Source of the DNA: Deltaproteobacteria bacterium
GTDB lineage: Bacteria; Myxococcota_A; Polyangia; Polyangiales; JADJMO01
DNA length: 64,000 nt
Assembly (NCBI GenBank): GCA_016182965.1
Contig: JACPFM010000006.1
Span: 9,160 to 73,159 of the forward strand
Reading direction: 5' to 3'
Shown here piece by piece: positions 20,997-64,000 of the stretch. Both the position numbers and the translations under genes were made by a program. The notes below the pieces were generated by a model. The model was not told the DNA's origin and made no database searches. It was given only the letters and a program-made list of their open reading frames with translations. Each line of letters starts with the position of its first letter. Within the stretch, counting starts at the first letter, position 1.

Positions 20997-21369
20997 ATCG
21001 AGTCTAGAGTCGAGAGTCCAGAGTGGCTTTGCACCAAGAACTCGCGAGGTGCCCTCTCGCCGTGGAACACCTCTAGCGGGACCTCACGCGGGCTCCTGAA
21101 ACCGGAGTGCTTCGCTGGGACCTTTGCCCTCACCCCGACCCTCTCCCAGAGGTAGAGGGAGCGAGAAATGCCCGCAGCTCTCGGCCCTCTCCCTTCGGGA
21201 GAGGGCCTGGGTGAGGGCCCTCTCTCGCGACCGCATCTCGCGTCAGAGTCCTGCGCCGTTCACTCGTCGCGCCACGACAACGGCACCCGCCCCCACCGGC
21301 CGCGGGTCTCTGTCTCTTCTCTCCACTCTAGACTCTAGACTCTAGACTCTAGACTCTGGACTCTGGACC
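20997..21369. repeat. Composite repeat: inverted GAGTCNA heptamer arrays flanking ~295 bp that holds an inverted pair of 'GCCCTCACCC..CCCTCTCCC' hairpin elements
   Basis: Left arm 20997-21027 starts 3 nt after stop 20994. Right arm 21323-21369 is '(tagactc)x4(tggactc)x2'. Inner elements are at 21126-21162 and 21183-21219 (reverse complements of each other). Confidence 0.85.
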
Positions 21370-21430
21370 GCTGCCTCCCCAGCCGATCCTGGCGTATCTC
21401 AGACCAGAGTGACGGCAGGGTTGACGCCCC

Positions 21431-48105: not shown

Positions 48106-50283
48106 ATGAAGCTCCGCAGCGCGCTGGCCGCCTTGCTCGCCGTGATGGGGGCCCTGCTCGTCGCGCTGGTCACGCGACGCGCCGACGCGGCGCGCACGCT
48201 GGTGGTCTGGCACGCCTACCGCGACGCCGAGGAGCGCGCGCTCGACAAGGTGCTCGCCGACTTCCGCGCCGCGCACCCCGACGCGGTCGTCGAGTCGCTC
48301 GCCATCCCCTTCGACGCCTACGCCTCCAAGCTCGAGGCGGCGATCCCCCACGGCCACGGCCCCGACGTCTTCATCGACGCGCACGAGCGCCTCGGCGACT
48401 ACCGCGCCCGCGGCCTCGTCGCGCCGATCGATCCCGCGCTCGTCGATCGCGCGGCGTTCGACGCGTCGGCGCTCGAGGCGGTGTCGCTCGACGGCAAGCC
48501 CTACGCGCTGCCCCTCGCGCTCAAGTGCCTCGCGCTCTACCTGCGCGCGCCGACCTGGCCCGAGGGGAAGAGCCCGGCGTCGCTCGACGAGCTCTTGAAC
48601 GGGCCGGGCGTGCGCCTCGCGTACGAAGCATCGGGTGCTTATACACACGCGCCGCTGCTCCACGCGTTCGGCGGGCGCATCCTCGACGACAAGGGGCGCT
48701 ACGCCTTCGCCGACGGCCCCGCGGTCGACTCGCTGACCTGGGTCGCCGCCGCCGTGTCGCGCGGGGCCATCCCCGAGGAGGCCTCCGGCGCGCTGGTCAC
48801 GCAGATGTTCTCCTCGGGCTCGCCGAGCGGCGCCGACGCGGCGATCAGCGGCCCCTGGCTCGCGGCCGATCTGCCGAAGGGCATCGCCTATCGGGTCGTT
48901 CCCATCCCACCGGTTCGTGCGGGCGGGCCGAAGCCGCGGCCGTTCCTCACCGTCGAGGGCGCGATGATCGCGCCCAAGCCGCGCGACGCGGCGCTCGCCG
49001 GCGAGATGCTGAAGTTCCTCGTGGCGACGCCATCGGCGCTGGTGCGCGCGCGCGAGGGGCGGCAGGTGGTCGCCTCGCGCGACGCCTGGACCGATCCCTC
49101 GGTGGCGAACGACCCGCTGCTGCGTGGCTTCGCCGAGGCGGCCCGCGACGCGATGCCGATGCCCACCTCGGCCGCGATGCGCGCCGCGTGGGAGCCGACC
49201 TCCCGCGCGATCCAGAAGGTCTTGCGCGGCGACGTGGCGCCGCGCGCAGCGATGGACGAGGCCGCGCACCGTTACGCCGACGTCACCCGTCCCCTCCCCC
49301 GCCCGGCCGATCCGCGCTTCCCGCTCCTCCTTCTGGGGCTCGTCGGGCTCTTCGCCGCGTTCCGGGCCGTGCGGGCGGCGCGCGATCCGGTGTTCCGCGC
49401 CGAGGCGCGCGCGTCGCTGCCCGCCTACGCCTACGTCACGCACGCGGTGATCATCGTGACTTTGCTGGTCGCCGTCCCGCTGGTGATCGGCGCCGCCACC
49501 TCGTTCTTCGCCGGGCGCGCCGGCTCGCTCTCCTACGTCGGGCTCGCCAACTACGTCGAGATCCTCACCGCGCGCGGCGGGCCGATCTTCGCTTCGGGCT
49601 CGTTCTACGCGGTCCTCGCGGTCACCATCCTGTGGACGGTGTGCAACGTGACGCTGCACCTCGCGCTCGGGGTCGCGCTCGCGCTCCTGCTCGCGCGCCC
49701 GGCGCTCAGGCTGCGCGGCGTCTACCGCGTGCTGCTCATCGTGCCCTGGGCGGTGCCGTCGTACGTCTCGGCGCTGGCCTGGAAGGGCATGTTCCACCGT
49801 CAGCTCGGCGCGGTGAACGCCATCCTGAAGGCGATCGGCGTCGAGCCGGTCGCGTGGTTCTCGAAGTTCGCCACCGCGTTCGCCGCCAACGTGGCGACCA
49901 ACGTGTGGCTCGGCTTCCCGTTCATGATGGTGGTCACGCTCGGCGCGCTGGCGGCGATCCCGCGTGAGGTGCTCGAGGCGGCGGAGGTCGACGGCGCCAC
50001 GCGCTGGCAGCGGTTCTGGCGCGTGACCTTCCCGCTGCTCCGTCCGACGCTCGCGCCGTCGGTGGTCCTCGGCGCCGTCTGGACGTTCAACATGTTCAAC
50101 GTGGTGTTCCTGGTCAGCGGCGGCGAGCCCGACGGGCGCACCGAGATCCTGGTGAGCGAGGCCTATCGCTGGGCCTTCACCCGCCAGGCGCAATACGGCT
50201 ACGCGTCGGCGTACGCGGTCCTCATCTTCCTCCTCCTCGTCGTGACCACGCGCCTCATCCGCGCGCAGAAGGAGGCCGCCTGA
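48106..50283 (+). CDS. Fused maltose/maltodextrin-type solute-binding protein (MalE-like) plus MalF-like permease
   Basis: Single uninterrupted frame. The N-terminal signal/anchor and SBP ('LVVWHAY..IPFDAY..ISGPWL') run directly into the TM helix 'FPLLLLGLVGLFAAF' and a MalF-type permease with EAA loop 'EAAEVDGATRWQRFWRVTFPLLRP'. Confidence 0.85.
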   Translation: MKLRSALAALLAVMGALLVALVTRRADAARTLVVWHAYRDAEERALDKVLADFRAAHPDAVVESLAIPFDAYASKLEAAIPHGHGPDVFIDAHERLGDYRARGLVAPIDPALVDRAAFDASALEAVSLDGKPYALPLALKCLALYLRAPTWPEGKSPASLDELLNGPGVRLAYEASGAYTHAPLLHAFGGRILDDKGRYAFADGPAVDSLTWVAAAVSRGAIPEEASGALVTQMFSSGSPSGADAAISGPWLAADLPKGIAYRVVPIPPVRAGGPKPRPFLTVEGAMIAPKPRDAALAGEMLKFLVATPSALVRAREGRQVVASRDAWTDPSVANDPLLRGFAEAARDAMPMPTSAAMRAAWEPTSRAIQKVLRGDVAPRAAMDEAAHRYADVTRPLPRPADPRFPLLLLGLVGLFAAFRAVRAARDPVFRAEARASLPAYAYVTHAVIIVTLLVAVPLVIGAATSFFAGRAGSLSYVGLANYVEILTARGGPIFASGSFYAVLAVTILWTVCNVTLHLALGVALALLLARPALRLRGVYRVLLIVPWAVPSYVSALAWKGMFHRQLGAVNAILKAIGVEPVAWFSKFATAFAANVATNVWLGFPFMMVVTLGALAAIPREVLEAAEVDGATRWQRFWRVTFPLLRPTLAPSVVLGAVWTFNMFNVVFLVSGGEPDGRTEILVSEAYRWAFTRQAQYGYASAYAVLIFLLLVVTTRLIRAQKEAA

Positions 50284-51170
50284 TGGCCAAGGCCTCCAAG
50301 AACCAGACGATGGACGAGACCGGCGGACGCCGCAGCCTCCTCGGCGAGGCGCTGGTCCACCTCGCGCTCGTCGTGGCGACGGCGGCGGCGCTCTACCCGG
50401 TGCTGTGGGTCATGTCGCTCGCGTTCTCGAGCTCGCAGGCGCCGAGCGCGCGCGTGCTGCCGTGGCCCGAGGCGCCCTCGCTCGATCAGTTCCGCGCCGT
50501 CGTCGGCACGCACGACGCCGCCGGTCGCTGGCTGTTCGGGCGGCAGCTCTTCAACTCGCTTTCGGTGTCGATCGCCACCGCGGTGGTCGGCGTCGGCATC
50601 GCCACGCCGGCCGCCTACGCGCTCGCGCGCTTCCGCTTCCTCGGCAAGGAGCGCGGCGTGTGGCTGCTCATGGCCACGCAGATGTTCCCCGGCGTCGCCA
50701 CGCTGGTGCCGCTCTACCTCATCTTGCAGGGCCTGCACCTGCTCGACTCGCGCGCGGGGCTCGTCCTGGTCTACGCGACGACCTCGGTGCCCTTCTGCGT
50801 CATGCAGCTGCGCTCGTCGTTCGAGGCCATCCCCGTCGACCTCGAGGAGGCGGCGATGGTCGACGGCGCCAGCCGCTTCCAGGCCTTCCGCATGGTGGCG
50901 CTGCCGGCGGCGCGCCCGGCGATCGCCGTGACCGCGCTCTTCGCGTTCATGGGCGCGTGGAACGAGTTCATCCTCGCCGCCACGCTGATGTCGCGCGCCG
51001 AGTCGTTCACCCTGCCGGTGGCCCTGCAGCGCTACGTCGGCGAGCACGGCGCCGCGTGGGGCCACTTCGCGGCCGGCGCGCTGATCGTGTCCATCCCGGT
51101 GATGGCGATCTTCTACCTGGCGCAGCGCCATATCGTGAGCGGGCTGACGTCGGGCGGCGTGAAGGGCTGA
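50283..51170 (+). CDS. malG: Sugar ABC transporter permease (MalG-like)
   Basis: ATG overlaps the previous stop. EAA loop 'EEAAMVDGASRFQAFRMVALPAARPA'. Six TM helices. Confidence 0.85.
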   Translation: MAKASKNQTMDETGGRRSLLGEALVHLALVVATAAALYPVLWVMSLAFSSSQAPSARVLPWPEAPSLDQFRAVVGTHDAAGRWLFGRQLFNSLSVSIATAVVGVGIATPAAYALARFRFLGKERGVWLLMATQMFPGVATLVPLYLILQGLHLLDSRAGLVLVYATTSVPFCVMQLRSSFEAIPVDLEEAAMVDGASRFQAFRMVALPAARPAIAVTALFAFMGAWNEFILAATLMSRAESFTLPVALQRYVGEHGAAWGHFAAGALIVSIPVMAIFYLAQRHIVSGLTSGGVKG

Positions 51171-51172
51171 CG

Positions 51173-51210
51173 GAGTCGTCAGTCGTCAGTCGTCAGTCGT
51201 CAGTCGAGAC
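51173..51210. repeat. Orphan heptamer array (GTCGTCA)x4, no inverted partner
   Basis: Starts 3 nt after stop 51170. Positions 51173-51204 are identical to 16263-16294 (32/32). Confidence 0.9.
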
Positions 51211-51314
51211 CGAGATCGGCCCCGTCGGGGCTGGAGGGTTCTGTCGCCGCCCCGTCCGACGCCCCACCCCCAAGCCCTCGGCCGCGGCTTCCCGACCGCG
51301 CGCCCGGTGCTCGG

Positions 51315-52238
51315 ATGGCTCGAAAACGCGGGGGTGGTACGCTCCGAGCGATGTCGAACGCGCGCACTTCGACGCCCGGCTGGCGCCTCGATCCCGCGGA
51401 CCCGCGCGCGCCTTCGCGCGAGGTATGGGCCGCGCTCTCGCCCGAAGCGCGCGCCGTGGTGGTCGACGCGCTCCCGTCCGAGCTCGACCCGTCGCTCGGC
51501 GTCGCGCCCCCCGAGGGCGACGAGCACTTCGATGCGTCCGTCAACCCACGGCACGCGCTGCGCCGTTGGTTCGGCAAACTCGGTCGGCGCGCTTACGTCG
51601 GGACGAACCTCGCCGTCTACTACCCTGCCGAGAAGGTCTTCGCGCCCGACCTGATCGTCGTGCTCGACGTCGACCCGGGCCCGCGGATGCGCTGGGTCGT
51701 CGAGGCCGAAGGGAAGGGCCTCGATTTCGTGCTCGAGGTGCATGTCGCCGGGGATTGGCGCAAGGACTTCGTCGACAACGTCGAGCGCTACGCGAAGCTC
51801 GCGATACACGAGTACTTCGTCTTCGACGTTTCGCGGGGCGCGCTCGTCGGACATCGCCTCGACGACACGCGGTGTCGCTACGCGCCCATCGCGCCCGGCC
51901 CCGACGGCTTCCGATCCGAGGTGCTGCAGCTCGACTTGCTGGTCAACGACGCGCGCGTTCGCTTCTTCCACGCGGGCGCTCGGGTCCCGGAGCTCGACGA
52001 GCTGGTCGAGCGGCTCGAGGGCGCCATGGCGGAGGCGATGGCGCACGTCGCGAAGCTCCAGGCCGAGCTGAAGGACACCGCAGACGCCCTCGAAGCGGCG
52101 AAGGCGGCCGAGCGCGCCGAGCGCGAGGCGAGGGAGGCCGAGCGCGAAGCGAGGGAGGCCGAACGCGAGGCGAAGGAAGCCGCCGAGGCCGAGCTCGCGC
52201 GTGTCCGGCGCGAGCTCGACGAGCTGCGGCGACGCTGA
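51315..52238 (+). CDS. Uma2-family (DUF820) putative endonuclease with C-terminal coiled coil
   Basis: 'APDLIVVLD', 'GLDFVLEVHV', 'YAKLAIHEYFVFD' (PD-(D/E)xK-like Uma2 pattern). The tail has 3 x 21-bp repeats (52119-52181) encoding the EREAREA heptad coiled-coil. Alternative start ATG 51351. Confidence 0.75.
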   Translation: MARKRGGGTLRAMSNARTSTPGWRLDPADPRAPSREVWAALSPEARAVVVDALPSELDPSLGVAPPEGDEHFDASVNPRHALRRWFGKLGRRAYVGTNLAVYYPAEKVFAPDLIVVLDVDPGPRMRWVVEAEGKGLDFVLEVHVAGDWRKDFVDNVERYAKLAIHEYFVFDVSRGALVGHRLDDTRCRYAPIAPGPDGFRSEVLQLDLLVNDARVRFFHAGARVPELDELVERLEGAMAEAMAHVAKLQAELKDTADALEAAKAAERAEREAREAEREAREAEREAKEAAEAELARVRRELDELRRR

Positions 52239-52381
52239 GGGCAGCGGCGGTTCAGTCGACCCACGCGGCCCGCATCGCCGGCCACCCGCCGCCGACCCGC
52301 GCGTCCGCGGGTGGTGAGGATGCGGCGCATCTGGCCGTGCTCGTTGCGCATGACGACGTGGCGCTGCATCGAGCGCTCGGA

Positions 52382-52422
52382 GGGGCCAAGAGATCCAAGC
52401 GTGCTTGGCGGATTCCCACCGT
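52382..52422 (-). repeat. Hairpin element copy A
   Basis: 'ggggccaagagatccaagcgtgcttggcggattcccaccgt'. About 38/41 identical to copy B. Core hairpin CCAAG-N4-CTTGG. Confidence 0.85.
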
Positions 52423-52672
52423 AAGGCACACAGTGCCATGGCCCTCGCGGCGTTGATTGTCAACGGATGAAACCGGCGGTGGGTCTCCGGCGGAGCCGCC
52501 GTGCTTCGCGCGCTGCGCAGTCGTGTCCGGTGGCGCCTGTTCGTCGCCCAATCGAACCCGAAGGGCGACGTTGACGTCGGCACGCGTCTCGCTCGGTGAC
52601 TGCCTGCGGAGACTGCGTCGCTCCGTCGGTGCGTCGCGCCGCGGCGTTCGCGAAGGCGGGGAGGGCCGTGTC

Positions 52673-53839
52673 ATGAGGACGAGCTCGTCGATTGCGCTGT
52701 TCACCGTGCTCGGGTTCACCTCGTGTGCGCCACGCGACGACGCCGGCGGCCGGCAGAACGCTACCGTGCTCGCTGCGGACTGCTACTCGGTCACGCAGAT
52801 CGACAACCGCAAGTTCGGCGGCGGTGTCGCTCCGCCACACGACATCGACGAGCGCGGAAGGCTGCTGTTCGATCGGTTCATCTGGGACCACGGAGAGCGA
52901 ACCCCGCTGCGGGCGCCGGAGGGCTGGGTCGCGGCCGGCGCGGTCGACTTCAACGAGCGCGGTGACGTCGTCGGCACAGTGCTTCGCGAGCTCGGTGCCG
53001 GTGCTCGGCGCCCCATCGTGTGGTGGCACGACGGCACCGTGGCCCTGTTGCCGGAGGTCGCGAGTCTGAACGAGGTCCTCGAAATCACCGAGCGCGGTCA
53101 CGTGCTCGCGCGCACGTACGACGGCCGCGCGTGGGATGTCGTTCTCTATCGCGACGGCGCCTGGATCGATTTGGGCCGGGGTATCGCCTACGACGTCAAC
53201 GACGACGACGAGGTCGTCCTCGTCGACGATCGCCGCGCGGTCTTGTGGAAGGACGGCGCGCGGATCGATCTCGGGCTCGACGGCGCCTTGACCATGAAGC
53301 TCAACGACCATGGCCAGGTGATCGCCAACGCCGAGCGCGCCGGCCCCGGGACGGAGGCGGCGTTCCTGTGGGAGACCGGGGTCGCGCGGATGCTCCCCGC
53401 GCTTCCATCGCTTGGGGACGCGCAGCAGTGGAGCGCGACCGCCATCAACGAGCGGGGCGACGTCGCCGGTTTGGTGATTCCGTCCAGCACCAGCACGTAC
53501 TTCTCGTATGCAGTGCTATGGCGCGGTGGCGCTCCGACCGTCCTCGCGGACTGGAGCGCGGGCGTGCTCGACCTCAACGACGCCGGTCAGGTGTTCGGCA
53601 ATGCCAGGCGGGGCGACGTGTTGAGACCATTCGTTTGGGATCGCGGAACGTACGTCGAGCTGCCGATGCCGTTCGTCGCACGCTCCGCCACCGGCTACGC
53701 GGACGGTCGCAAGTCGATCAACGAACGCGGCGACGTCTTCTTCAACATGAAGCCGGTCGACGGGATCAGCCACACGTTGCTGTGGAGGAATGACCTCTGC
53801 GGCCGTCCCGAGCCGGAGCCGGAGGAGCCCGGGGAGTGA
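52673..53839 (+). CDS. Lipoprotein with HAF-like extracellular repeats (beta-propeller-like)
   Basis: ATG 52673, lipobox 'LGFTSCA'. About 7 repeats of the pattern 'A..(I/F)NERGDV(V/A)G ... (V/F)(L/W)W..G....L'. Confidence 0.75.
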   Translation: MRTSSSIALFTVLGFTSCAPRDDAGGRQNATVLAADCYSVTQIDNRKFGGGVAPPHDIDERGRLLFDRFIWDHGERTPLRAPEGWVAAGAVDFNERGDVVGTVLRELGAGARRPIVWWHDGTVALLPEVASLNEVLEITERGHVLARTYDGRAWDVVLYRDGAWIDLGRGIAYDVNDDDEVVLVDDRRAVLWKDGARIDLGLDGALTMKLNDHGQVIANAERAGPGTEAAFLWETGVARMLPALPSLGDAQQWSATAINERGDVAGLVIPSSTSTYFSYAVLWRGGAPTVLADWSAGVLDLNDAGQVFGNARRGDVLRPFVWDRGTYVELPMPFVARSATGYADGRKSINERGDVFFNMKPVDGISHTLLWRNDLCGRPEPEPEEPGE

Positions 53840-54044
53840 TCAGCGGAGCTCGTCGAACCAAACGGCGAGGGAACCCCCGTGGAAATGGCTCTCGATTCGA
53901 CCTTCGACCTTCGACCTCGGAACCGCAGACCGGTTCGTGTTCGTGGTCGCGTGCGGTTCCGTCGTCGCCGCCTGCAAGAAGGCAAAGCTCACCGCCACGG
54001 GCCCGCAGCCGGAGCTCGCGCCAATGGTCGAGGACAAGTGAGCG

Positions 54045-55838
54045 TCAGGGGTCGTCCTCCGCGTCGGTCTCGATGAGCGCACGCCGCCCGCCGAGGTTGA
54101 GCCTGCGGTGCTCGTCGAGCGCGCGGTCGTCAGCTTTGCGCGCATCGGGGTCGAACCGGCGCACCTCAAAGCGATTGGCAAGGTAGACGTCGATCCCCGG
54201 AAACGACACGCACGCGTCAGGGACGCCGTCGTCCCAATCAAGCGTGAGCACCGGGTACTCGCCGATGGCATCGGGCTCGCCGACGTAGAGCACCTCGCAC
54301 CGGTTGCCGTCCTGAGGACCGAGGAGGAAGCAGTAGCCGGGCAGGTCTTCAAGGACGCCTTCGAAGAGGTCACCGACCCGCCGTCCCCACTGGCGGAGCG
54401 CCGCCCCGGCGACAGTCAGCGGCTCGAGGCGCGGCTCGTCGAGATCGGCGAGCAGTCCGAGCGAGGCCGCGTCGAAGGCGAGGAAAGCTCGAAGGGCCGG
54501 GGAAAGTGGCCGGTCGCCCGGGAGCTTCAAGCTCGCCAGGACCTCCGGTGCGAGCGCTCGAGGGGGCTGCTCGAGGAGCTCCTCTTTGCGGATTCGTGCG
54601 ATCACGTCTTCCACCAGAGCGACTCCGCGGTGGAGCTTCGGAGCCTTCGCGGCGGCCCCCGCAGCCTTCTTCTTGCGCGCAGCGAGGATCTTCTCGGCCG
54701 ACGCTCCGCCCCAAGGTGAGCCCGTCTTCTTTTTCGCCTTCTCGCCAGTCGCCATCGCTTCGAGCAGGGCCAGGTGCCCCTCGAAGCCGAGCCCGAGGAG
54801 GGCCTTGCTCGCCGAGAGCATCACGGACCGCTCGGGATCGCAGAGCATCTCCAGGAGTGATGCTCGGTCATTCTCCTTCTCGCGGAGTCCCAGGTACGTC
54901 ATCCGCGGGAGGGAGGAAGCGGCGAACCGCTCTGCCTTCGCGCCCCGCATGTCGGCGATCTGCGCGGCCGCCTCGGGCAAGGCCGCGATCGCTGCCGCAC
55001 GCGCGGTGCTCCAGGCCCTGACGACCTTCGCGTCAAAAGGAGAGCGATCCCCTTGCCACTCGGGAGCGAGCTGCGACGACAGCACCGCGTAGTCGTAGCG
55101 GACCCGGCCGAGGCACGCGATCGAATGGGCGCGGTAGACCTCCTCGACGACCGTGAAGGGGTTGAAGTCCTTGACCGCGAGGAAGCGGGCCCAGTCATCG
55201 TCCGAGAGTGCGCCGACGCGATGCATGTCCGGTGAGTACGGCTCCACGGGGCGGCGTGCGCCGGCGACCAGCTCGGTGAGCTCGTGCCTCCACGCGTCCG
55301 GGTAGGCACAGGCCTCCAGGTACGCGTGAATGGCGACCGCTCGCGCCATATCCCCCGTCTTCGCGACAGCGCAGCCCAGCGTGAGGAGCACGTACGGGTT
55401 CGTCGGATCGAAGCGGAGCGCGCGCTCCGCGAAGCGGACGGCCTCCTCGAGTTGCCCGAGGTGAAGGAGATCGTCGGCGATCGCGTCGAGGACCCGGTAG
55501 GCGGACGTCGCGTGCCAGCGCGGGGTATCGCGGAGCGCGGCGGCATGCGCCACGAGCGCGTCCTCCCAGCGGCCCAAGCGAGTGAACAGCGTGCCGACGA
55601 ACCCCTGGCGGGCGATGAACGAGCCCCAACGGTCCACGAGCGAGACGAGCGCCTCGATCGCGCTGGCTGGCGGAGCGGCCCCGGCGAACGCCTCGGCGGC
55701 GACGCGCGGCAGCGCCTCGCGATCGGCCGCATCCGCGGGCGCGAGCGCCTTGCAGAACGCGGCGATCGTGACATCGTTCGACTCGAAGGCTGCGAACGCG
55801 GGCTCGATGACCTGGGCCGTGCTCATGTTCTTCTCCAT
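54045..55838 (-). CDS. TPR-containing protein with C-terminal SUKH (SMI1/KNR4)-like domain; possible orphan immunity protein
   Basis: ATG 55838 (MEKNMSTAQ). TPR 'LGQLEEAVRFAERALRFDPTNPYVLLTLGCAVAKTGDMARAV'. C-terminus 'LSPALRAFLAF..LPGYCFLLGPQDGNRCEVLYVGEPDAIGEYPVLTLDWDDG..SFPGIDVYL' fits the SUKH pattern. Motif-level inference only. Confidence 0.7.
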   Translation of the reverse strand: MEKNMSTAQVIEPAFAAFESNDVTIAAFCKALAPADAADREALPRVAAEAFAGAAPPASAIEALVSLVDRWGSFIARQGFVGTLFTRLGRWEDALVAHAAALRDTPRWHATSAYRVLDAIADDLLHLGQLEEAVRFAERALRFDPTNPYVLLTLGCAVAKTGDMARAVAIHAYLEACAYPDAWRHELTELVAGARRPVEPYSPDMHRVGALSDDDWARFLAVKDFNPFTVVEEVYRAHSIACLGRVRYDYAVLSSQLAPEWQGDRSPFDAKVVRAWSTARAAAIAALPEAAAQIADMRGAKAERFAASSLPRMTYLGLREKENDRASLLEMLCDPERSVMLSASKALLGLGFEGHLALLEAMATGEKAKKKTGSPWGGASAEKILAARKKKAAGAAAKAPKLHRGVALVEDVIARIRKEELLEQPPRALAPEVLASLKLPGDRPLSPALRAFLAFDAASLGLLADLDEPRLEPLTVAGAALRQWGRRVGDLFEGVLEDLPGYCFLLGPQDGNRCEVLYVGEPDAIGEYPVLTLDWDDGVPDACVSFPGIDVYLANRFEVRRFDPDARKADDRALDEHRRLNLGGRRALIETDAEDDP

Positions 55839-55851
55839 CGCCGACGTAGTA

Positions 55852-56073
55852 GATGAAGATCGTGTCAGGATGCGTGCGGTGCTCGGACCTCTGCCCGCGC
55901 GCAAAGCTCGAGAGCCCGGGGCTCTTGCGCGGCAGCCGGAAGCGCCACGCGCCCGCTGGCGTCGCTCCGATGATCTCGGCGCTCGCGTCCCCGCGTAGAG
56001 GCGCGTGTGCCCACTGGTCCGCCGGTACTGCGACGTGGAAACGCGGGTCGAAGTCATCGGGAAGCAGCGGCAT
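55852..56073 (-). pseudogene. Fragment resembling the middle of a DUF2169 (T6SS-associated) domain
   Basis: 'MPLLPDDFDPRFHVAVPADQWAHAPLRGDASAEIIGATPAGAWRFRLPRKSPGL..RSEHRTHPDTIFI' resembles the DUF2169 segment '..FD.RFF.AAP.DQ...YLRGDE...L..L.P.G...F.LPG....LDT..ID'. It lacks both N- and C-terminal parts and is out of frame with the next gene. Confidence 0.4.
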
Positions 56074-56086
56074 CTTCGTCTGCTGC

Positions 56087-56137
56087 GGGGCTAAGAGATC
56101 CAAGCGTCCTTGGCGGATTCCACCGGTCGCGTTTACA
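56087..56137 (-). repeat. Hairpin element copy B
   Basis: 'ggggctaagagatccaagcgtccttggcggattccaccggtcgcgtttaca'. Its proximal end lies 14 nt upstream (minus strand) of ATG 56073. Confidence 0.85.
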
Positions 56138-56268
56138 TAGCAGACCTACGGCGCCTGCTCGGTCGACGCGGACAACCCGTCGCGCCGCTGCCCGGAGTGC
56201 CCCGTTGCTTGCGACCCGCAGGGAAACCCGACCGGGGACACCGGCTGTGGCCTCGGGGGCGAGAGCGT

Positions 56269-56487
56269 CTTGACGAGGGTGCCGTCGACCTTCTTGCCGA
56301 TGCGGCGGCCGAGCGGGTCGACGATGTACTCGATCGTCTTGCCAGGCATGGCCACGCCGAGGAGGTTGCCCCGGCTGTCCCAGGTGTACGTGGTGGTCCG
56401 CGTCACGCCGGAGACCGTCTCGGTCTTCGTCGCGAGAGGCGTGGCCGGGTTCTTCCTGCCGACGCTGCTCGGAGCGACGAAGCAGGT
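56269..56487 (-). pseudogene. RHS/YD-repeat protein fragment
   Basis: 'TETVSGVTRTTTYTWDSRGNLLGVAMPGKTIEYIVDPLGRRIGKKVDGTLVK' is classic YD-repeat periodicity (Y.YD..GNL.. / ..Y.YD.LGRR). No start, core or toxin domain is present, and the flanks are not coding-like. Confidence 0.7.
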
Positions 56488-56759
56488 CACCGGCTCGGAC
56501 GGGCGGCGTTCGCGGTGCTCGCGGGCGTGGCGGCGTGCGCGTTCGCCGCGCTGCGGCTGGTGGTCGTCACCAGCTGCCGCGATAGGCGAGGAGCGCAACG
56601 AAGTGGGCGCCGCGAGCCAACGCGGGTCCGTGAACGCACACCCAGTGTGAGAAGAGCCGTCCACCCTGCAACCGGCGGCCACTCGCTCCTCGTCGCGGAG
56701 TACGCCTCGCCCCTCCCCGAGCCGTTGTTCAACGTGGAGCTCGGCTCTACCCTGGCCCG

Positions 56760-59700
56760 ATGACGGACCGGGGGCGGCTGGTCGGGGTCTTTCTTCTTGG
56801 TGGGGCGCTCGTTTCGACGGCTTGCTCGTCCGATTCGAAAGACGGGCCCCGCGGCACGTTCCTCGAGGTGACCACGTTCGACGTGGCCGAGGCGGGTTGG
56901 GGCGATGCGCCGCTGCCGGTGCACTTCGTCTGGTCGATCAAGGCCGACGGAGGACCGCTCACCTGCAAGCTCGATTGGGACGGTGACGGCACGATCGACA
57001 AGGAGATCTCGGGGTGCCGCCCCGACACGCTCCAGGACGCAGTCGCCGACTTGCCGACGTACACCTTCACGAAGACCGGTGAGCATCACCCCAAGCTCGT
57101 CGTGAGCGACGGCGTTCGCACCGCGGAGAGGACGACGACCGTCTTCGCGAACTTCGTGAAGTACGCGCCGGGCGTGATCCTGCCGGAGAAGACCGAGGGC
57201 TTCGTCGGCGCGGAGACGAGCTGGAAGGCGCCCGCCACGTACGGCGTCGATCCGCCGCACGTCGTCCTCACGTACACGGACGCCTCCAAGGTCCCTGCGA
57301 TCGCACCGGGCACGATCCTCTGGGGCAGCGCGTACGTCATGAAGGTCACGACGGCGACTCCGTCGGGGAAGACGCTCGCCGTCGACGGGGTGAGCGTGCC
57401 CATCACCGACGCGATCCAGGACTGCTTCGTCGGCGCGCGCGATGTCGTCCCCTCGTTCGCCGGCGCGCGCTGCAACGCTGATTCGTGCAAGGACTGGGTC
57501 TACGAGCCCCTGCCGCCCGGCAAGTCGCCGATCGCAGGCGCAGACGCTGGGGCCGACGGAGGTTCGCCCACGTCGTTCAAGCGACTCGGCACGCACGCCG
57601 ATCCGCTCAAGGTCGACTTCGCCGGCAGCTTCTTCGGCCTCAAGGTCGGACTGCCGACGCTCGACATCGACGCGTTCGAGCACTCGTTCCAATTCGGCAT
57701 CGTGGTCAACAAGTTCCTCGTCGAGATCGGCGGCTTCTCGCTCAAGATCGCCGAAGTCGACATCCAGCCGAGCCTCAAATACGAGTTCAACGTCAAGGAG
57801 GCCCTCCGCGACGGGAAGTATGACTTCGGCGCGGCGCCGCTCGGCCCGCCCATCGCGATCGGCCCCATCCCGTTGATCCCGGAGGTCGCGCCCCAGCTCC
57901 GGTACAAGGTCGACGTCAAGGCGGGGGCTTCCGTGGAGTTCAAGGCGCCGATCAAGTTCGCCTACCACGACGGACCCCCGAGCAACCTTGGCTTCGAGTT
58001 CAACCCGCTGCCGACTGCCTTCCTGGGCATCACTAACTGGGAACCGACCCCTGAGGCCGCCGCCGGTCTCTCGGGGAGCCTCTCGTTCGTTCCGAAGTTC
58101 CGGCTGCGCATTCCGGGCATCGGCGGTCCCTACGTCGCGCCCGTCATCTCGGCGACGATCGAGGGGATGGCGAAGATGAAGACGCCCTCGCCTCCGGGCG
58201 CGGCCTGCAGCGATCCCGACTACGTGCCCCCCAGCGGAGGCGTGTTCTGCGGCGCGTTCAAGCTCGGCTTCGGCGGCGAGTGCGACTTCGAGCTCACGTG
58301 GCTCGAGTTCACCAAGAAGAAGCTCAGTTGGAAGACGCTCGAGTTCCAGATCGCGGAGATCGTGCTCGAGAAATGCAAGGGCTTCTGCGGAGGGACGACC
58401 GTCGACGCAGGTTCCGACGCGGCCGACGCAGCACCGGATGGCGATGCGACGGCAGGCGACGCCGTTGCCAGTGATACCAGCGTGGGCGACTCGTCGATCC
58501 CCGACGCCCCGGCAGAAGGAGGATCCGATTCGGGCACGCTCGCCGACATCACGGCCGACTGCTTCGAAGGGGCGACCGTGTCGGTCTGCGGCACGAGCTT
58601 CTACCCCGGGAGCACGATGACGCTGGTCAACGTCACGGAGGTGCCCGGCGGCATCTCGAGCTATGCGGCGGTCCTCGGCAAGCCCGAGGTCGGCGACGAG
58701 AGCTCCAACGTCCCCAGCAGCGCGAAGGTGTTCACCTTCTTCGACACCAGCAGCCTGTGGGGCGTCCCCGGATTCCCGACGCCGATCGTCGGGCGCGACG
58801 TCAATCGAGGGGGCCGATCGAACCTCATCGCGGTCTGGAAGAACTCGGCCGGCGTCTTCGAGTGGGTCACCAACATCACCGGCGGTCACTACAGCTTCAC
58901 CGGCGGCCTTCCTGTCTACCGTCAGTTCCAGTTCATCCACGAGTCGAGCTCCGCCCCCACGAGCTCTCCCTTGTCGTCGTTCGGCGCGCGGAAGGACTTC
59001 TTCCGAAGCTACAAGAGCTCCGAAGGGACGGTCTGGACCGAGCTCGACCCGCCGACCGACCTCTCGTGTGCGCCCGTCATCTCGTTTCCGAAGGACTGCT
59101 TCCAGTACGCGGAGCTGTCGATGGCCCCGATCGCGATCGACCTCGGCGCCGTTCCGGCCGGTTCGAGCTCCGCGGACGCGACCTTCGACCTGTCGAACGA
59201 CGGGAAGGACCCGAGCAGCGCGATCACGCTCTCGCTGACGGGCGCCGATGCGTCGCTCTTCTCGATCTCCGGAGGATCGTGCATGTCGGGGGTGACGACG
59301 CTCGCGGCGGGCGGGTCGTGCGCCATCAAGATGAAGTTCAACCCGCTCTCGACGACGAGCGTCGGTACGAAGACCGCGACGCTGAAGGCGACGGCCTCGA
59401 CGGGCGGAACCGTGCACGCAACCGTGACGGGCAAGGTCTCCTCCGCCGGGCTCGCGCTCTCGCCGACGCCGAAGGACTTCGGGTTCCTGCTCGCTGGCGC
59501 GAGCACGCCGGACACGACGTTCACCGTGACGAACACCGGGGGGTCGCCGAGCAGCGCGATCACGCTGTCGCTGACCGGCGCCGATGCGTCGCAGTTCACC
59601 CTCACGGGCGGCACCTGCGCCTCCGGCACCACCACGCTCGCACCGTCCGCGAGCTGCACCGTGACCGCCCGGTTCGCGCCGGGCAGCACGGCGATCGCCG

Positions 59701-60113
59701 GATCCAAGTCGGCGACGCTGTCGGCCACCGCGACGACGGGCGGGACGGCGAGCGCTGCGCTGAGCGGCGTGGTCCAGGCACCGGCGGCGCTCACCATCAC
59801 GCCGGCAGGGAAGGTCTACGGGTCGGTATCTACGACCGGCGCCGGCACCGACAGCCTCTTCACCGTGAAGAACGGCGTCGGCGGCGTCACGAGCGGAACG
59901 CTCGCGATCGCGATCGGCGGTACCCACCCCTCCGACTTCGCCATCACCGGCGGCACCTGCGTCCCGGGCACGACCAAGCTCGCGGGCGGCGCGAGCTGCA
60001 GCGTCATCGTCAGGTTCAAGCCGACATCGACGGGGGCGAAATCCGCATCGCTCGGCGTCGTGGCGACACCCGGCGGCACCCCGGCCGCCTCGCTGACGGG
60101 CACGGGCATCTGA
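56760..60113 (+). CDS. Large surface lipoprotein: PKD-like domain, ~450-aa unknown domain, Asp/Ala-rich linker, second unknown domain, three Ig-like 'choice-of-anchor D'-type repeats
   Basis: Lipobox 'LVSTACSS'. PKD-like 'PLPVHFVWS..DWDGDGTID..YTFTKTGEHHPKLVVSDG'. Three C-terminal ~95-aa repeats ('FG.V..GSSS.ATF.LSNDG..PSSAITLSLTGADAS.F...GG.C..G.T.LA.G.SC'). Confidence 0.85.
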   Translation: MTDRGRLVGVFLLGGALVSTACSSDSKDGPRGTFLEVTTFDVAEAGWGDAPLPVHFVWSIKADGGPLTCKLDWDGDGTIDKEISGCRPDTLQDAVADLPTYTFTKTGEHHPKLVVSDGVRTAERTTTVFANFVKYAPGVILPEKTEGFVGAETSWKAPATYGVDPPHVVLTYTDASKVPAIAPGTILWGSAYVMKVTTATPSGKTLAVDGVSVPITDAIQDCFVGARDVVPSFAGARCNADSCKDWVYEPLPPGKSPIAGADAGADGGSPTSFKRLGTHADPLKVDFAGSFFGLKVGLPTLDIDAFEHSFQFGIVVNKFLVEIGGFSLKIAEVDIQPSLKYEFNVKEALRDGKYDFGAAPLGPPIAIGPIPLIPEVAPQLRYKVDVKAGASVEFKAPIKFAYHDGPPSNLGFEFNPLPTAFLGITNWEPTPEAAAGLSGSLSFVPKFRLRIPGIGGPYVAPVISATIEGMAKMKTPSPPGAACSDPDYVPPSGGVFCGAFKLGFGGECDFELTWLEFTKKKLSWKTLEFQIAEIVLEKCKGFCGGTTVDAGSDAADAAPDGDATAGDAVASDTSVGDSSIPDAPAEGGSDSGTLADITADCFEGATVSVCGTSFYPGSTMTLVNVTEVPGGISSYAAVLGKPEVGDESSNVPSSAKVFTFFDTSSLWGVPGFPTPIVGRDVNRGGRSNLIAVWKNSAGVFEWVTNITGGHYSFTGGLPVYRQFQFIHESSSAPTSSPLSSFGARKDFFRSYKSSEGTVWTELDPPTDLSCAPVISFPKDCFQYAELSMAPIAIDLGAVPAGSSSADATFDLSNDGKDPSSAITLSLTGADASLFSISGGSCMSGVTTLAAGGSCAIKMKFNPLSTTSVGTKTATLKATASTGGTVHATVTGKVSSAGLALSPTPKDFGFLLAGASTPDTTFTVTNTGGSPSSAITLSLTGADASQFTLTGGTCASGTTTLAPSASCTVTARFAPGSTAIAGSKSATLSATATTGGTASAALSGVVQAPAALTITPAGKVYGSVSTTGAGTDSLFTVKNGVGGVTSGTLAIAIGGTHPSDFAITGGTCVPGTTKLAGGASCSVIVRFKPTSTGAKSASLGVVATPGGTPAASLTGTGI

Positions 60114-60135
60114 TCCAGCTCGCGCGAGAAGGCTC

Positions 60136-60513
60136 TCAACCGTCGTCGAGCACGTCGGCAACTGCGTCGCCCGTGGTCGCGTCCGACGCGACGTCGGCGC
60201 GTTCCAACGCACCGGCGTCGTCGTCGTCGATTCCAGGCGCATACCGGCAGAGCCGGTGCGAGTCCGCGCAGGAGATCTGACGGTACGGCCACTTGCAGGT
60301 GGGCACGCCGTGCTCGCACACCGGCGGCTGCAGCACGTCCAGATCGCAGCAGCAGACGCCTTTCGCGTCGCACGCCGCATCGATGCCGCCCTCGGATCGG
60401 ACGTCGGCAGCGTCGCCCTCGGGCGGCGCGTCGGCGGCGCCATCGCTGAGGACGTGCGGGGCGCACGCCGCCGGGCACCCCACGACCGTGAGCGCGAAGA
60501 GCAACGGCCGCAT
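60136..60513 (-). CDS. Cys-rich acidic lipoprotein
   Basis: ATG 60513, lipobox 'LTVVGCPA', includes 'CDAKGVCCCDLDVLQPPVCEHGVPTCKW'. Convergent with the large lipoprotein; 22 bp separate the two stop codons. Confidence 0.65.
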   Translation of the reverse strand: MRPLLFALTVVGCPAACAPHVLSDGAADAPPEGDAADVRSEGGIDAACDAKGVCCCDLDVLQPPVCEHGVPTCKWPYRQISCADSHRLCRYAPGIDDDDAGALERADVASDATTGDAVADVLDDG

Positions 60514-60540
60514 GGCATCGAGTGTACCGGATGGCGACGA

Positions 60541-60592
60541 GGGGGCTAAGAGAGCCAAGCGTCCTTGGGGATCCACCGTTCGCGTTTGCATA
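60541..60592 (-). repeat. Hairpin element copy C
   Basis: 'gggggctaagagagccaagcgtccttggggatccaccgttcgcgtttgcata'. About 47/52 identical to copy B. Lies 27 nt upstream (minus strand) of ATG 60513. Confidence 0.85.
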
Positions 60593-60658
60593 TTTCGGAC
60601 ATATGCGCAGTTCGCTCGGGACGGTCGGAATACGGGTCATGGGCCGTGAGCGTCTCTC

Positions 60659-60820
60659 GTGAGCAATGCAAGGCTCGCGGACTTCGCGACCCGCGTGCAC
60701 GAGGACTTCGCCGACGAGCTCTCGTTCGCCCGAGTCTGGGGCCACGGGAAGCACGACGGCCAGCGGATCCACCGCGACCACCCGCTCGCCGACGGCGACG
60801 TGATCGAGCTGCACCTGTAG
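60659..60820 (+). pseudogene. Isolated C-terminal TGS-domain tail of an Obg/DRG-type GTP-binding protein gene
   Basis: '(V)SNARLADFATRVHEDFADELSFARVWGHGKHDGQRIHRDHPLADGDVIELHL*' matches the DRG/Rbg TGS end ('..IH.D....F.YA.VWG...K...QRVG.DH.L.D.DVV.I'). An in-frame TGA at 60647 means no GTPase domain lies upstream. Confidence 0.55.
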
Positions 60821-60919
60821 GTGCGGAAACTGTTGAGCAACCGCCCCGCATGCGCGAGTCTTGGCAGCGGGGGGGAGGGGCGAGTCCCGTGGGCATGACC
60901 ACACAGGACTACGACGAAC

Positions 60920-62197
60920 ATGATCGTCCTCGCGCCCAACACCGCGTTCCTCTCCGAGACATCGCGAATGCTTGCGGTCTACCAGGCGCTGCGGGCGCGC
61001 GGCGCGCCCGTAACGGTGGTGACGCACGGCGGCCCCCACGAGCGGGTGCTCTCCACGCACGACGTGCCCTACGAGGTGCTGGGCCCCGGCTGGAGCCGTG
61101 AGCGTGCGGCGCGCTTCGTGACGTCGATACCTGGCATGAGTCCGCCCGGTGCGGAGCTGTACAGCGACGCGGAGCTGATTGAACTGACCCGCGCCGAGGC
61201 GGCCCACTTCGCGCGCGTGCGCGCGACCGCGGTCGTCACGGGGTTCATCCTCTCGACGCTGCTCTCGAGCCGAATGGCGCGCATCCCCCTGGTGACCACG
61301 CACGCTGCCTCCTGGGTCGCGCCGGTGATGGAGCGGGGGATGCTCCCGGTGCCGTCGAAGAACGTCCTGCCGCTGCAGCGCTGGCTGCCCGAGCGGGTGA
61401 AACGCTTCCTCGCCAACGTGGGACCGATGCGCGGGACGGTGGGCTGCGGAGTGTTCAACCGGGCGGCGCGCACGCTCGGCGTCGAGGGCGTGCCCAGCCT
61501 CGCGGCGCTGCTGATGGGCGATCTCACCCTCGTCACGGACGTGCCCGAGGTGCTCGGCATCTCCCGCGCGGAGTTGGAGGCGTGGCGACCGCGCAATCCG
61601 AGGTACTTCCGAAGCGAGCCGAAGCTCCGCTACGTGGGCCCCATGTTCGCGAAGCTCGATCTACCCGTGTCGCCGCAGGTCGAGGAGTTCCTCGCCGGGC
61701 CCCGGCCCATCGTCTACGTCGCGATCACCTCCAGCACGCCGGGGCTCGTGCGCGGGGTGGTGCGCGCGGTGCGAGCGGCCGGCACGCGAGCGCTGGTGGC
61801 GAGCACGGTGCACGAGGTGGGCGACGTCGCAGGCGACGGCGTGCTCGTCGAGCAGGTGCTGCCCAGCCATCTCATCATGCCGAAGGTCGACCTGGCGGTG
61901 ACGGCCGGCGGTCAGGGCAGCGTGCAGACGGCGATGACGTCGGGCACGCCGCTGATCGGCATCCCGCTGCAGCCCGAGCAGGACTTCAACGTCGTGCTGA
62001 TGGAGCGGCACGGCGCCGCGCGCCGGCTCGCGGAGGCGCACGCGGCATCGCCGGCGCTCACCGAGCTCGTACGCACGATGCTCGCCGACGAGCGGTACAA
62101 GGAAGCGGCGCAGCGGGTGCAGCGCTGGTACGCAGGCGTCGACAGCGCGGGCGCCGCGGCGGACGCCATCCTGGAGTGCGCGAGCCAACGAAGCTGA
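60920..62197 (+). CDS. GT1-family (UDP-glycosyltransferase/MGT-like) glycosyltransferase
   Basis: GT-B C-terminal nucleotide-sugar motif 'VTAGGQGSVQTAMTSGTPLIGIPLQPEQDFN'. 425 aa. Confidence 0.8.
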   Translation: MIVLAPNTAFLSETSRMLAVYQALRARGAPVTVVTHGGPHERVLSTHDVPYEVLGPGWSRERAARFVTSIPGMSPPGAELYSDAELIELTRAEAAHFARVRATAVVTGFILSTLLSSRMARIPLVTTHAASWVAPVMERGMLPVPSKNVLPLQRWLPERVKRFLANVGPMRGTVGCGVFNRAARTLGVEGVPSLAALLMGDLTLVTDVPEVLGISRAELEAWRPRNPRYFRSEPKLRYVGPMFAKLDLPVSPQVEEFLAGPRPIVYVAITSSTPGLVRGVVRAVRAAGTRALVASTVHEVGDVAGDGVLVEQVLPSHLIMPKVDLAVTAGGQGSVQTAMTSGTPLIGIPLQPEQDFNVVLMERHGAARRLAEAHAASPALTELVRTMLADERYKEAAQRVQRWYAGVDSAGAAADAILECASQRS

Positions 62198-62577
62198 CGC
62201 GATGGTCGTCGAATCGAGCGACGATCGCGCGACCATCGAGGCGACGCTCGAAGCGGGAGGGAAGATCTGCGCGACGGTGTCGCGGCACGTTCGTCGCCGT
62301 CAAGGACGGGTCACCCGGCGTATCACCGCTTGTGATTCGCCTCCCACCCGCCGATTCGCGAACACATCGATCGGAATAGGCGGACAGGTCGCGCGGGCGG
62401 TCCTCCGCGCCGCCGCGTGTCGTCAGACCGAGCTGCAGCGAGTCGAAGGCGTGCCACCGCGTGACGCCGTCCACCGCGCGCGACGGACGCGCCGACACCA
62501 CGCCCGCGTCAGGCTGCGACGTCCACCCTCAAGGGCAAGGGCTGCGATACCGAGCGACCGCTCGCGAAGCAGCGGGA

Positions 62578-63174
62578 TCAGCGCAGCAGCCCGCGCGCCT
62601 TCGCAGCCGCGACGAAACGATCCTTGGCGAGTTGATAGCGCTTGCGCAGGCGGGCGCTCTCGCGCTCGAGCGCGGCCTCGTCGGCCTGCTCACCGAGGAA
62701 CACGCGAGAGAGCTCGCGCCACGACAGGCCCTCTTCGAGCCTCAGGAGCAGGAGCGTGCGATCCTCTTCGCTGAACGAGGACCGCAGCTCGGCGCGCGCG
62801 CGATCGATGTTGCTGCTGGTCTCGGTGCGCAGGCGCTCCGCGAGCTTCTCGACCTCGCTGGCTTGCGAGAGCGGGACCTCGCCCGCGCGCCGCTCGCCGA
62901 GGCGCGCGTGATCGACCGCGGCGTGACGCGCGAGCAGGAAGCACCACGAGCGCAGCGAGCACTGCCAGCCGAACTGGGGAAGGCTCGTCCACAGTCGCTC
63001 GGCGAACACCGAGAACGCGTCGCCGGCACGGGTCTCGTCGCCGAGGAGCGACCGCAAGAACCGGAGCACCTCGGGGCCGCGCCCCTGCAAGGCGAGCGTG
63101 GTCGCGCGGGCTGCATCCCCCTCTTCGAGCGCAGCGAGAACGGACGCCTCGAGCGCCCCCTGCTCCTCCTTCAT
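62578..63174 (-). CDS. ECF-type RNA polymerase sigma-70 family factor
   Basis: Region 2-like 'FSVFAERLWTSLPQF..SLRSWCFLLARHAAVDHAR'. Region 4 HTH 'LLLLRLEEGLSWRELSRVF'. 198 aa. Confidence 0.75.
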   Translation of the reverse strand: MKEEQGALEASVLAALEEGDAARATTLALQGRGPEVLRFLRSLLGDETRAGDAFSVFAERLWTSLPQFGWQCSLRSWCFLLARHAAVDHARLGERRAGEVPLSQASEVEKLAERLRTETSSNIDRARAELRSSFSEEDRTLLLLRLEEGLSWRELSRVFLGEQADEAALERESARLRKRYQLAKDRFVAAAKARGLLR

Positions 63175-63203
63175 GACGAAAGTCTATCCAAGGCTTCACA
63201 TCC

Positions 63204-63228
63204 GGAAAGCCGCCGACGTCTACCCGTC
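63204..63228 (+). promoter_or_regulatory. ECF-type promoter candidate (GGAAA-N16-CGTC) upstream of the Cys-rich lipoprotein gene
   Basis: 'GGAAAgccgccgacgtctacccCGTC' ends 12 nt before ATG 63241, in the divergent region shared with the ECF sigma gene. Confidence 0.25.
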
Positions 63229-63240
63229 GGAGGTCATGGA

Positions 63241-63999: not shown

Positions 64000-64000
64000 G

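Follow-up and report, generated by a model that had tools for sequence, protein, structure and literature searches.

The DNA analysed here (the window) is a stretch of 64,000 nucleotides with a G+C content of ~71%. Its source is a metagenome-assembled genome (MAG): the NCBI protein HYV09_02430, from a MAG labelled 'Deltaproteobacteria bacterium', shares 99% identity with a 114-residue open reading frame (ORF) at 56146-56490. Between a malG-type ABC permease gene (50283-51170, plus strand; BPD_transp_1) and a GT1 glycosyltransferase gene (60920-62197, plus strand), the window carries a segment that an earlier reading of the sequence alone (the sequence-only reading) had described as a patchwork of intact accessory genes and gene remnants, part of it resembling an orphan Rhs toxin/immunity cassette. 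This report concerns the part at 53.9-56.5 kb, in which an intact gene for a TPR protein lies among fragments of a vgrG gene, a DUF2169 gene and a YD/RHS-repeat gene. We consider this part to be, probably, the eroded remnant of an auxiliary island of a type VI secretion system (T6SS) that was linked to vgrG.

ORF lists are unreliable at ~71% G+C, and we therefore used a frame plot of G+C content by codon position (GC3), along with translations, to choose the coding frames. The plot showed a minus-strand coding-like signal at 55850-56520, in a frame other than that of the TPR gene, and a plus-strand coding-like stretch from 60650 in the frame of the GT1 gene. GC3 and the Pfam matches described below upheld the patchwork of intact genes and true remnants, each remnant lacking most of its gene.

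An internal fragment of a gene for a DUF2169 protein, the T6SS chaperone of PAAR-like domains, lies at 55852-56085 on the minus strand (Pfam PF09937, E = 1.1e-15). The match scored 58.3 bits against a gathering cut-off of 25 and covered positions 202-282 of the 294 in the profile. These 78 codons showed 64% identity to residues 225-302 of intact Sorangium-type proteins of 337/338 residues. Relative to the intact proteins of two Sorangium-clade loci (L002 and L010), ~220 N-terminal and ~35-38 C-terminal residues are gone, and neither a start codon nor a complete domain is left. Both breakpoints were visible in a DNA alignment with L002, in which the homology runs from ~56082 to ~55858. The 63-nt spacer that separates the DUF2169 and TPR genes in L002 is missing from the window, and the fragment adjoins the TPR gene right at its ribosome-binding site and start codon, out of frame relative to that start, just as the sequence-only reading had stated. 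Since the piece is internal to its gene, frameshift errors do not explain it. The same holds for the other remnants, in which most of each gene is physically absent, so that sequencing frameshifts in intact genes could be ruled out and the remnants are products of decay, as had been proposed.

A search of the window with the proteins of an intact T6SS island of Sorangium sp. So ce362 revealed a further remnant that the sequence-only reading had missed. The C-terminal tail of a VgrG protein is encoded at 53949-54041 on the plus strand (tblastn with the So ce362 VgrG, E = 1e-7), with a coding-like GC3 signal. It is what remains of a vgrG gene, the final ~20-30 codons, and ends in ...KLTATGPQPELAPMVEDK before the stop codon, and 17 of its 18 final residues are identical to those of the So ce362 VgrG encoded beside the PAAR-like gene (L010 3792-6020). 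The DNA is also closely similar to that of Sorangium over the last 57 nt. The tail and the TPR gene are convergent, with their stop codons 3 nt apart, and a (TTCGACC)x3 array lies just upstream of the tail at 53896-53917. None of the gp27/gp5-like body domains of VgrG is present; the last ~19-31 residues are recognisable, and the 83-residue ORF had no Pfam match. The search with the Sorangium island proteins gave no match to DUF4150/PAAR-like, TsiV or VRR-Nuc proteins in the 64-kb window.

The TPR gene itself (minus strand, 54045 to 55826 or 55838) is intact, with a coding signal in the GC3 plot. It encodes 593 or 597 residues, depending on the start, and the likely start is the ATG at 55826, which is preceded by GGAG. 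The protein consists of an N-terminal TPR region, to which its only Pfam matches belong, and a C-terminal alpha/beta domain of ~190 residues (54048-54620). Full-length homologues (P0002, P0003, P0009 and P0177 among them) are rare: a first search gave four, and two more, both from Sorangium, came out of a subsequent profile search. The window protein aligns with its homologues over the full length.

The third fragment, of ~57 residues, lies at 56270-56439 on the minus strand and derives from a YD/RHS-repeat protein. Its scores with hidden Markov models (HMMs) were borderline (Pfam RHS_repeat, E = 0.0022 and 18.8 bits, below the cut-off of 22; TIGR01643, 16.6 bits, just above the cut-off of 15.8). 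It was, however, 50% identical to a JGI YD-repeat protein (P0007; E = 7e-8 database-wide), in an alignment that extends from 56439 to 56270 and then ends abruptly. We found no start, no PxxxxDPxGL core end and no toxin domain, the last two after inspection of the three downstream frames. The identification made by the sequence-only reading, of a repeat piece without start, core end or toxin, thus stands on homology to P0007, while the HMM scores leave it borderline. The YD piece shares its reading frame with the DUF2169 fragment, with one TAG (56146-56148) between the two.

The intact counterpart of this arrangement is found in the Sorangium clade. In So ce362 (CP150332.1, 5319660-5341435; L010 1-11776), three vgrG genes are followed by genes for a Tox-PAAR-like (DUF4150) protein, a VRR_NUC-like protein, a 267-residue protein, TsiV, DUF2169 and the TPR protein, after which come unrelated genes. 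The PAAR-like gene is a separate gene of 122 codons, and the protein with the weak VRR_NUC match has 232 residues. The full island from vgrG to the TPR gene is also present in a second assembly. In L002, a Logan contig, the TPR homologue (45% identity) directly follows an intact gene for a 338-residue DUF2169 protein. This DUF2169 gene has an overlap of 4 bp with a gene for TsiV (PF11876, E = 2.6e-27). The TPR gene lies directly downstream of DUF2169 in all three intact Sorangium-clade loci that we examined.

Chaperones of the DUF2169 family occur strictly together with VgrG and DUF4150, and they maintain the spike tip in a form competent for secretion (PMC11883445, PMC13373197); immunity to VRR-Nuc effectors is conferred by TsiV/DUF3396 proteins (PMC9635880). 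Taken together with the gene order of the intact loci, what is known of these families places the TPR gene at the end of a T6SS auxiliary island. The So ce362 island resembles, in split form, the TseV/TsiV module of Salmonella bongori, in which a PAAR-like VRR-Nuc effector is paired with a DUF3396 immunity protein (PMC9635880). The Sorangium island likewise has TsiV and a weak VRR_NUC match beside a PAAR-like gene; however, the PAAR-like and nuclease parts are separate genes there, DUF2169 comes after the immunity gene, and none of the module's genes survives in the window. There is also a likeness to the known DUF2169 chaperone clusters (Tap2/TvpA; VgrG, DUF4150 'PIPY' and DUF2169), in that VgrG, Tox-PAAR-like and DUF2169 genes occur together in the intact Sorangium counterpart and that the DUF2169 piece and VgrG tail of the window derive from such a cluster (PMC11883445; PMC13373197). 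The cluster in the window is non-functional: it has no DUF4150 gene, ~30 codons of VgrG and none of its body, and about a quarter of DUF2169. The myxobacterial clusters also differ from those known in that DUF2169 follows the immunity gene and is in turn followed by the TPR gene, which is not described in PMC11883445, PMC13373197 or PMC9635880.

The intact Sorangium arrangement therefore argues that the window holds an eroded T6SS auxiliary island, and not an orphan Rhs toxin/immunity cassette. The tie of the remnants to type VI secretion, which the sequence-only reading had suggested, is supported by the DUF2169 piece, the VgrG tail and the Sorangium island. We propose that only the terminal TPR gene of the island would have survived, with ~20-30 codons of vgrG, 78 of DUF2169 and 57 of a YD/RHS gene left around it. 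The orientation of the VgrG tail, opposite to that of its Sorangium counterpart, presupposes an inversion. The stretch beyond vgrG would first have been inverted relative to Sorangium, and deletions would have followed. The relics appear to sit in a rearrangement-prone accessory segment between the ABC-permease and glycosyltransferase genes, which also holds lipoprotein genes that are apparently lineage-specific, the Uma2 gene and what is left of the 3' end of a DRG-type GTPase gene. Deletions and insertions may have occurred at or beside copies of a repeat of ~53 bp.

This repeat was found in three plus-strand copies, all in one orientation and all within 52.4-60.6 kb, where none would be expected by chance. 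Copy 1 (52380-52432; nhmmer E = 1.4e-14) is intergenic between the Uma2 and HAF-like genes. Copy 2 (56085-56141; E = 1.5e-18) abuts the 5' truncation of the DUF2169 fragment and is the 'short junction element' of the sequence-only reading, which had noticed the element but not that it is one of three copies. Copy 3 (60540-60594; E = 1.2e-15) lies ~27 nt upstream of the start of the Cys-rich lipoprotein gene and ~65 nt to the left of the TGS tail described below. Two of the three copies are thus at or near gene truncation points. The repeat reads GGGGCYAAGAGAKCCAAGCGTSCTTGG...CCACCG..CGCGTTTRCATA, with GGGGCYAAGAGAKCCAAGCGTSCTTGG as its core and a small hairpin, CCAAG-CGTC-CTTGG. Its copies vary by insertions and deletions, and it is therefore non-coding. 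An nhmmer search found no further copies in the 64-kb window. Searches for an RNA or tRNA relic gave no Rfam match at the gathering score, none with E <= 1 in the region, and no tRNA, and the repeat contains no sigma-70-like promoter. Ten exact matches to the core in JGI metagenomes were rejected as chance matches, as their GC content differed and their flanks were dissimilar. What can be said of the repeat is that it marks junctions; it may form one end of a small mobile element, serve in recombination or act as a regulatory box.

As the window comes from a MAG, the patchwork could be an artefact of assembly or binning, that is, a chimeric contig joined at repeats. Logan contigs of SRR12113421, which are an independent assembly, matched the window at 100% over 53898-56236 and 56234-64000 and so reproduced the fragments at 100% identity. 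These contigs end exactly at 53898, within the TTCGACC heptamer array, and at 56235, where they overlap by only 3 nt; the two internal joins, between the HAF gene and the VgrG tail and between repeat copy 2 and the YD fragment, consequently depend on the MAG assembly alone. A 2339-nt Logan contig carrying the VgrG tail, the TPR gene, the DUF2169 fragment and repeat copy 2 had the same ends in two samples. The recurrence of the breaks at 53898 and 56235 hints at strain-level variation or low coverage at the joins. The truncation points themselves, in contrast, are inside single Logan contigs: both junctions of the DUF2169 fragment, the junction of the VgrG tail with the TPR gene, the 5' end of the YD piece and the TGS tail. 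In addition, GC content and GC3 are alike across the joins. An artefact is therefore very unlikely to account for the patchwork.

Several observations weigh against the derivation from a T6SS island, or limit how far its history can be traced. The orientation of the VgrG tail, as noted, is opposite to that in Sorangium. The Sorangium island has no Rhs gene, and the YD fragment may therefore stem from a separate, unrelated event. We saw intact islands in no group other than the Sorangium clade, in which the TPR proteins are 85-91% identical to one another. The two joins just mentioned have the support of the MAG assembly only. The repeat showed no recognisable function, neither of its strands gave a fold that was consistent or notably stable, and it was unmatched in other sequences, including the other loci that were fetched. 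Finally, we found no close relative with conserved flanks; one scan of contigs with the GT1 protein gave only homologues of 49-52% identity without shared neighbours. The borders of insertions and deletions and the order of events are accordingly given here as a proposal.

The sequence-only reading had called the TPR gene SUKH-like and had seen in it an immunity gene of an Rhs system. Its view of an intact gene with TPR repeats was correct. Neither the window protein nor its two nearest homologues matched a SUKH HMM at E values up to 10. A profile of the last 190 residues found 306 cluster representatives at E <= 1e-3, which are mostly stand-alone proteins of 190-280 residues and for which Pfam has no domain model. 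Among 79 members of this family, one matched SMI1_KNR4 (E = 0.005) and two matched DUF5066 weakly, and UniRef names one member 'SMI1/KNR4 family protein'. The family profile matched a single solved structure, 4iqn of Salmonella (E = 1.4e-7), which belongs to Pfam DUF5066 (PF16728). The window TPR protein had no DUF5066 match of its own; its C-terminal domain is thus a distant relative of DUF5066 and not a member. We found no literature on 4IQN or DUF5066.

Structure prediction for the 54045-55838 product, which the sequence-only reading had proposed, gave a topology that fits the SUKH label, with a weak fold match to a SUKH structure. A whole-protein AlphaFold2 (AF2) run on four sequences gave a predicted local distance difference test (pLDDT) score below 50 in the C-terminal part, whereas a model of the C-terminal domain built on the 79-sequence alignment reached a pLDDT of 93. 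The predicted order is helices, short strands, helices, a four-stranded meander and helices, which is in line with the description of the SUKH core as four helices, a beta-hairpin and a four-stranded beta-meander (PMC3113570). Foldseek against the PDB, however, returned 4iqn (E = 8.8e-6, template modelling (TM) score 0.46-0.56), and the SUKH structure 2icg ranked only 25th (E = 1.2, TM 0.38-0.44, probability 0.18). The structure search of BFVD with the C-terminal domain, and tblastn searches of plasmids with this domain and with 4iqn, gave no match. In view of the missing HMM match and the weak fold match to 2icg, the label 'SUKH-like' is plausible but unproven. Compared with the SUKH superfamily (SMI1/KNR4, Syd, US22), the domain has a predicted meander topology that would fit, and differs in having DUF5066/4iqn as its closest curated relative and no toxin neighbours at the three stand-alone members checked.

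The genomic contexts of the family bear on the same question. In all three cases checked, stand-alone members had housekeeping neighbourhoods without toxins. TPR-fused members sit in T6SS islands. Ten multidomain members were scanned; the fusion partners included TPR or ankyrin repeats in eight of them, and a toxin in none. Ankyrin fusions were seen among P0051, P0076, P0078 and P0092, and one protein of 1332 residues combines TPR, ankyrin repeats and a PARP-type zinc finger. This suggests that the C-terminal domain is a general protein-binding or tethering module.

These results make it improbable that the locus is an orphan Rhs toxin/immunity cassette, that is, a displaced 3' piece of an rhs gene with a SUKH-family immunity gene retained against the Rhs-delivered toxin. 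Such a cassette would account for the YD fragment upstream of the TPR gene on the same strand, even in the frame of the DUF2169 piece, and for purifying selection on the TPR gene (see below), and it would draw on the predicted C-terminal helices, short N-terminal strands and four-stranded meander, on 2icg and on the single SMI1_KNR4 match and UniRef name; isolated SUKH genes have indeed been proposed to protect against non-self toxins (PMC3113570). The likeness to orphan Rhs modules (displaced rhs-CT/rhsI), however, goes no further than a short rhs-derived fragment upstream of an intact small-island gene. The fragment in the window comes from the repeat shell and lacks both a DPxGL end and a C-terminal toxin, and no cognate immunity gene adjoins it; ~130 nt of unassigned, unrelated DNA, repeat copy 2 and the DUF2169 fragment separate it from the TPR gene. 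In the intact loci the conserved neighbour of the TPR gene is DUF2169 and not rhs-CT, and the multidomain relatives of the TPR protein are neither toxin-fused nor toxin-adjacent. In this specific form, the interpretation of the sequence-only reading is not supported.

We then considered whether the surviving TPR gene is still constrained. Its closest relative is on a JGI metagenome contig (L025; Ga0451576_0126148, 1-2667), with 84% DNA identity over 1015 gapless bases. This contig holds the last ~350 codons of the gene, in frame and without stops. The ratio of nonsynonymous to synonymous substitution rates (dN/dS) between the two was 0.26, at a dS of 0.41 (Nei-Gojobori), and 0.24 for the C-terminal domain alone, and the TPR gene has therefore been under purifying selection for most of its divergence from this relative. 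The homology of the two contigs breaks off 31 nt short of the stop codon, and beyond it lie unrelated genes; even close lineages thus differ in the 3' flank of the TPR gene. A 58%-identical homologue on another contig (L001 6849-7987; ENA ERZ28533575 NODE_2350) has a frameshift near residue 277 and is truncated, and genes for IS21, ISAZ013 and DDE_Tnp_1 transposases lie directly upstream of it. This is an independent case of decay of the TPR gene outside a T6SS island.

The TPR protein would be a cytoplasmic, protein-binding protein, composed of a TPR solenoid and a DUF5066-like, possibly SUKH-like, domain. Our best guess is that it binds the T6SS spike or an effector partner. In intact islands its role beside DUF2169 may be that of a co-chaperone or of a second immunity factor. 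Should it still be functional here, stand-alone protection against effectors fired by relatives would be the simplest role. Orphan immunity genes are known to persist without weapon genes (PMC7400221, PMC12247911), and the window resembles such orphan T6SS immunity genes and immunity islets in that one intact, selected gene outlives the weapon genes. The difference is that TsiV, the recognised immunity gene of the island, was lost, while the TPR protein is only a putative immunity protein.

Alternatively, the TPR gene may be a co-chaperone or adaptor gene that was stranded by recent deletions and is functionless here but has not yet decayed. We regard this as possible but less likely than not. 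Extra accessory genes accompany DUF2169 in class II/III Tvp clusters (PMC13373197), which the position of the TPR gene right after DUF2169 recalls, and TPR repeats with a protein-binding alpha/beta domain are a typical chaperone make-up. The frameshifted, truncated homologue among insertion sequences shows that the gene does decay once isolated, and dN/dS, being an average over the whole divergence, is blind to a recent loss of constraint. On the other hand, a gene of 597 codons has no frameshift or stop while the neighbouring relics are all shorter than 80 codons, the GGAG ribosome-binding site and start codon were kept though the deletion ends ~14 nt upstream, and the relative of 84% identity keeps its last ~350 codons open in a different downstream context. 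An orphan protective gene and a stranded co-chaperone are both live options for the TPR protein.

A bolder combination of the T6SS derivation with the repeats is doubtful. It would hold both that the protein with TPR and DUF5066-like domains is an undescribed myxobacterial T6SS component, a second chaperone or immunity factor partnering DUF2169, that outlives the weapon as a stand-alone defence, and that the region is cut and rejoined at the three 53-bp repeats, as a small recombination or mobile element, specific to the lineage, by which genes are truncated.

The remainder of the segment consists of accessory genes and one further remnant. The Uma2-family gene (51315-52238, plus strand; Pfam PF05685, E = 1.7e-13, 50.8 bits against a cut-off of 27), a putative restriction endonuclease gene, is intact by GC3 and was correctly identified by the sequence-only reading. 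Three 21-nt tandem repeats at its 3' end (52116-52182) encode a charged coiled-coil tail of the (AEREARE)n type. For the HAF-repeat lipoprotein gene (52670-53839, plus strand) the earlier description held in part: the frame has a gene-like GC3 signal and the protein has five internal repeats of the INERGDV type, but its TIGR02913 score of 22.1 bits falls just under the cut-off of 22.65, so that we call it HAF-repeat-like. The ORF opens at 52457 and the likely start is at 52670, where the protein begins MRTSSS... with a lipobox. The gene for a lipoprotein of 1117 residues (56760-60113, plus strand) is intact, as had been stated; its label as a PKD protein fared less well, the PKD match being weak (E = 0.022), and three choice-of-anchor D / HYDIN-type Ig domains fit better (NF012200, E = 2.8e-37; PF22544, E = 1e-11). 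The Cys-rich lipoprotein gene (60136-60513, minus strand; ORF to 60591) proved to have the coding signal expected of it, from the GC3 frame and from a gene call of 125 residues in the Logan assembly. Its likely start is M27, MRPLLFALTVVGC, and it had no family match in the Pfam and NCBIfam scans.

Also as the sequence-only reading had it, the TGS-domain tail at 60659-60820 (plus strand; Pfam TGS, E = 2.4e-10, 40.7 bits against a cut-off of 22.2) follows an in-frame stop, the TGA at 60647-60649. It represents the last ~50 codons and stop of a DRG/Rbg-type GTPase gene and aligns to residues 315-364 of the 366-residue yeast Rbg2 (7nrc_So) and to the TGS domain of human DRG1 (2eki). The GTPase G domain is absent upstream of it, where the DNA is made up of the repeat element and the divergent Cys-rich gene. 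Six-frame inspection of the other intergenic stretches showed no more recognisable remnants. The segment has a G+C content of 0.687 against 0.716 in the rest of the window, and it contains no integrase, transposase or tRNA gene, so that it is not a classical island.

The heptamer arrays form a separate feature of the window. The array (AGTCGTC)x4.7 at 51174-51208 (plus strand), 3 nt after the malG stop, was found both with Tandem Repeats Finder (TRF) and by pattern search. It has no inverted partner, whereas the array at 16264-16296 is matched by an inverted array at 16360-16390; the sequence-only reading was right on both its presence and its lack of a partner. Heptamer arrays at 16264-16390, 21000-21370, 51174-51208 and 53896-53917 begin 0-60 nt after the stops of plus-strand genes. 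Two are paired as inverted repeats (AGTCGTC with its complement, and GAGTCYA with ACTCTAG), and these could form long hairpins around spacers of 63 nt and ~300 nt, respectively. The arrays at 51174 and 53896 are unpaired. That the unpaired array at 51174 marks a left breakpoint, as had been suggested, fits the data.

The event described here is of a known kind, the decay of a T6SS effector island, and as such is fairly ordinary genome decay, with the 53-bp repeat and the heptamer arrays as unexplained extras. It illustrates the erosion of such an island in a myxobacterial lineage and reveals which of the island's genes lasts longest. A further lead is the unannotated family encoded next to DUF2169, which combines a TPR region with a domain for which Pfam has no model. 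If the TPR protein turns out to confer immunity or to help in spike loading, it would be a new component for the DUF2169/PAAR-like branch of the T6SS; otherwise, the locus would be a case of routine decay of the accessory genome.

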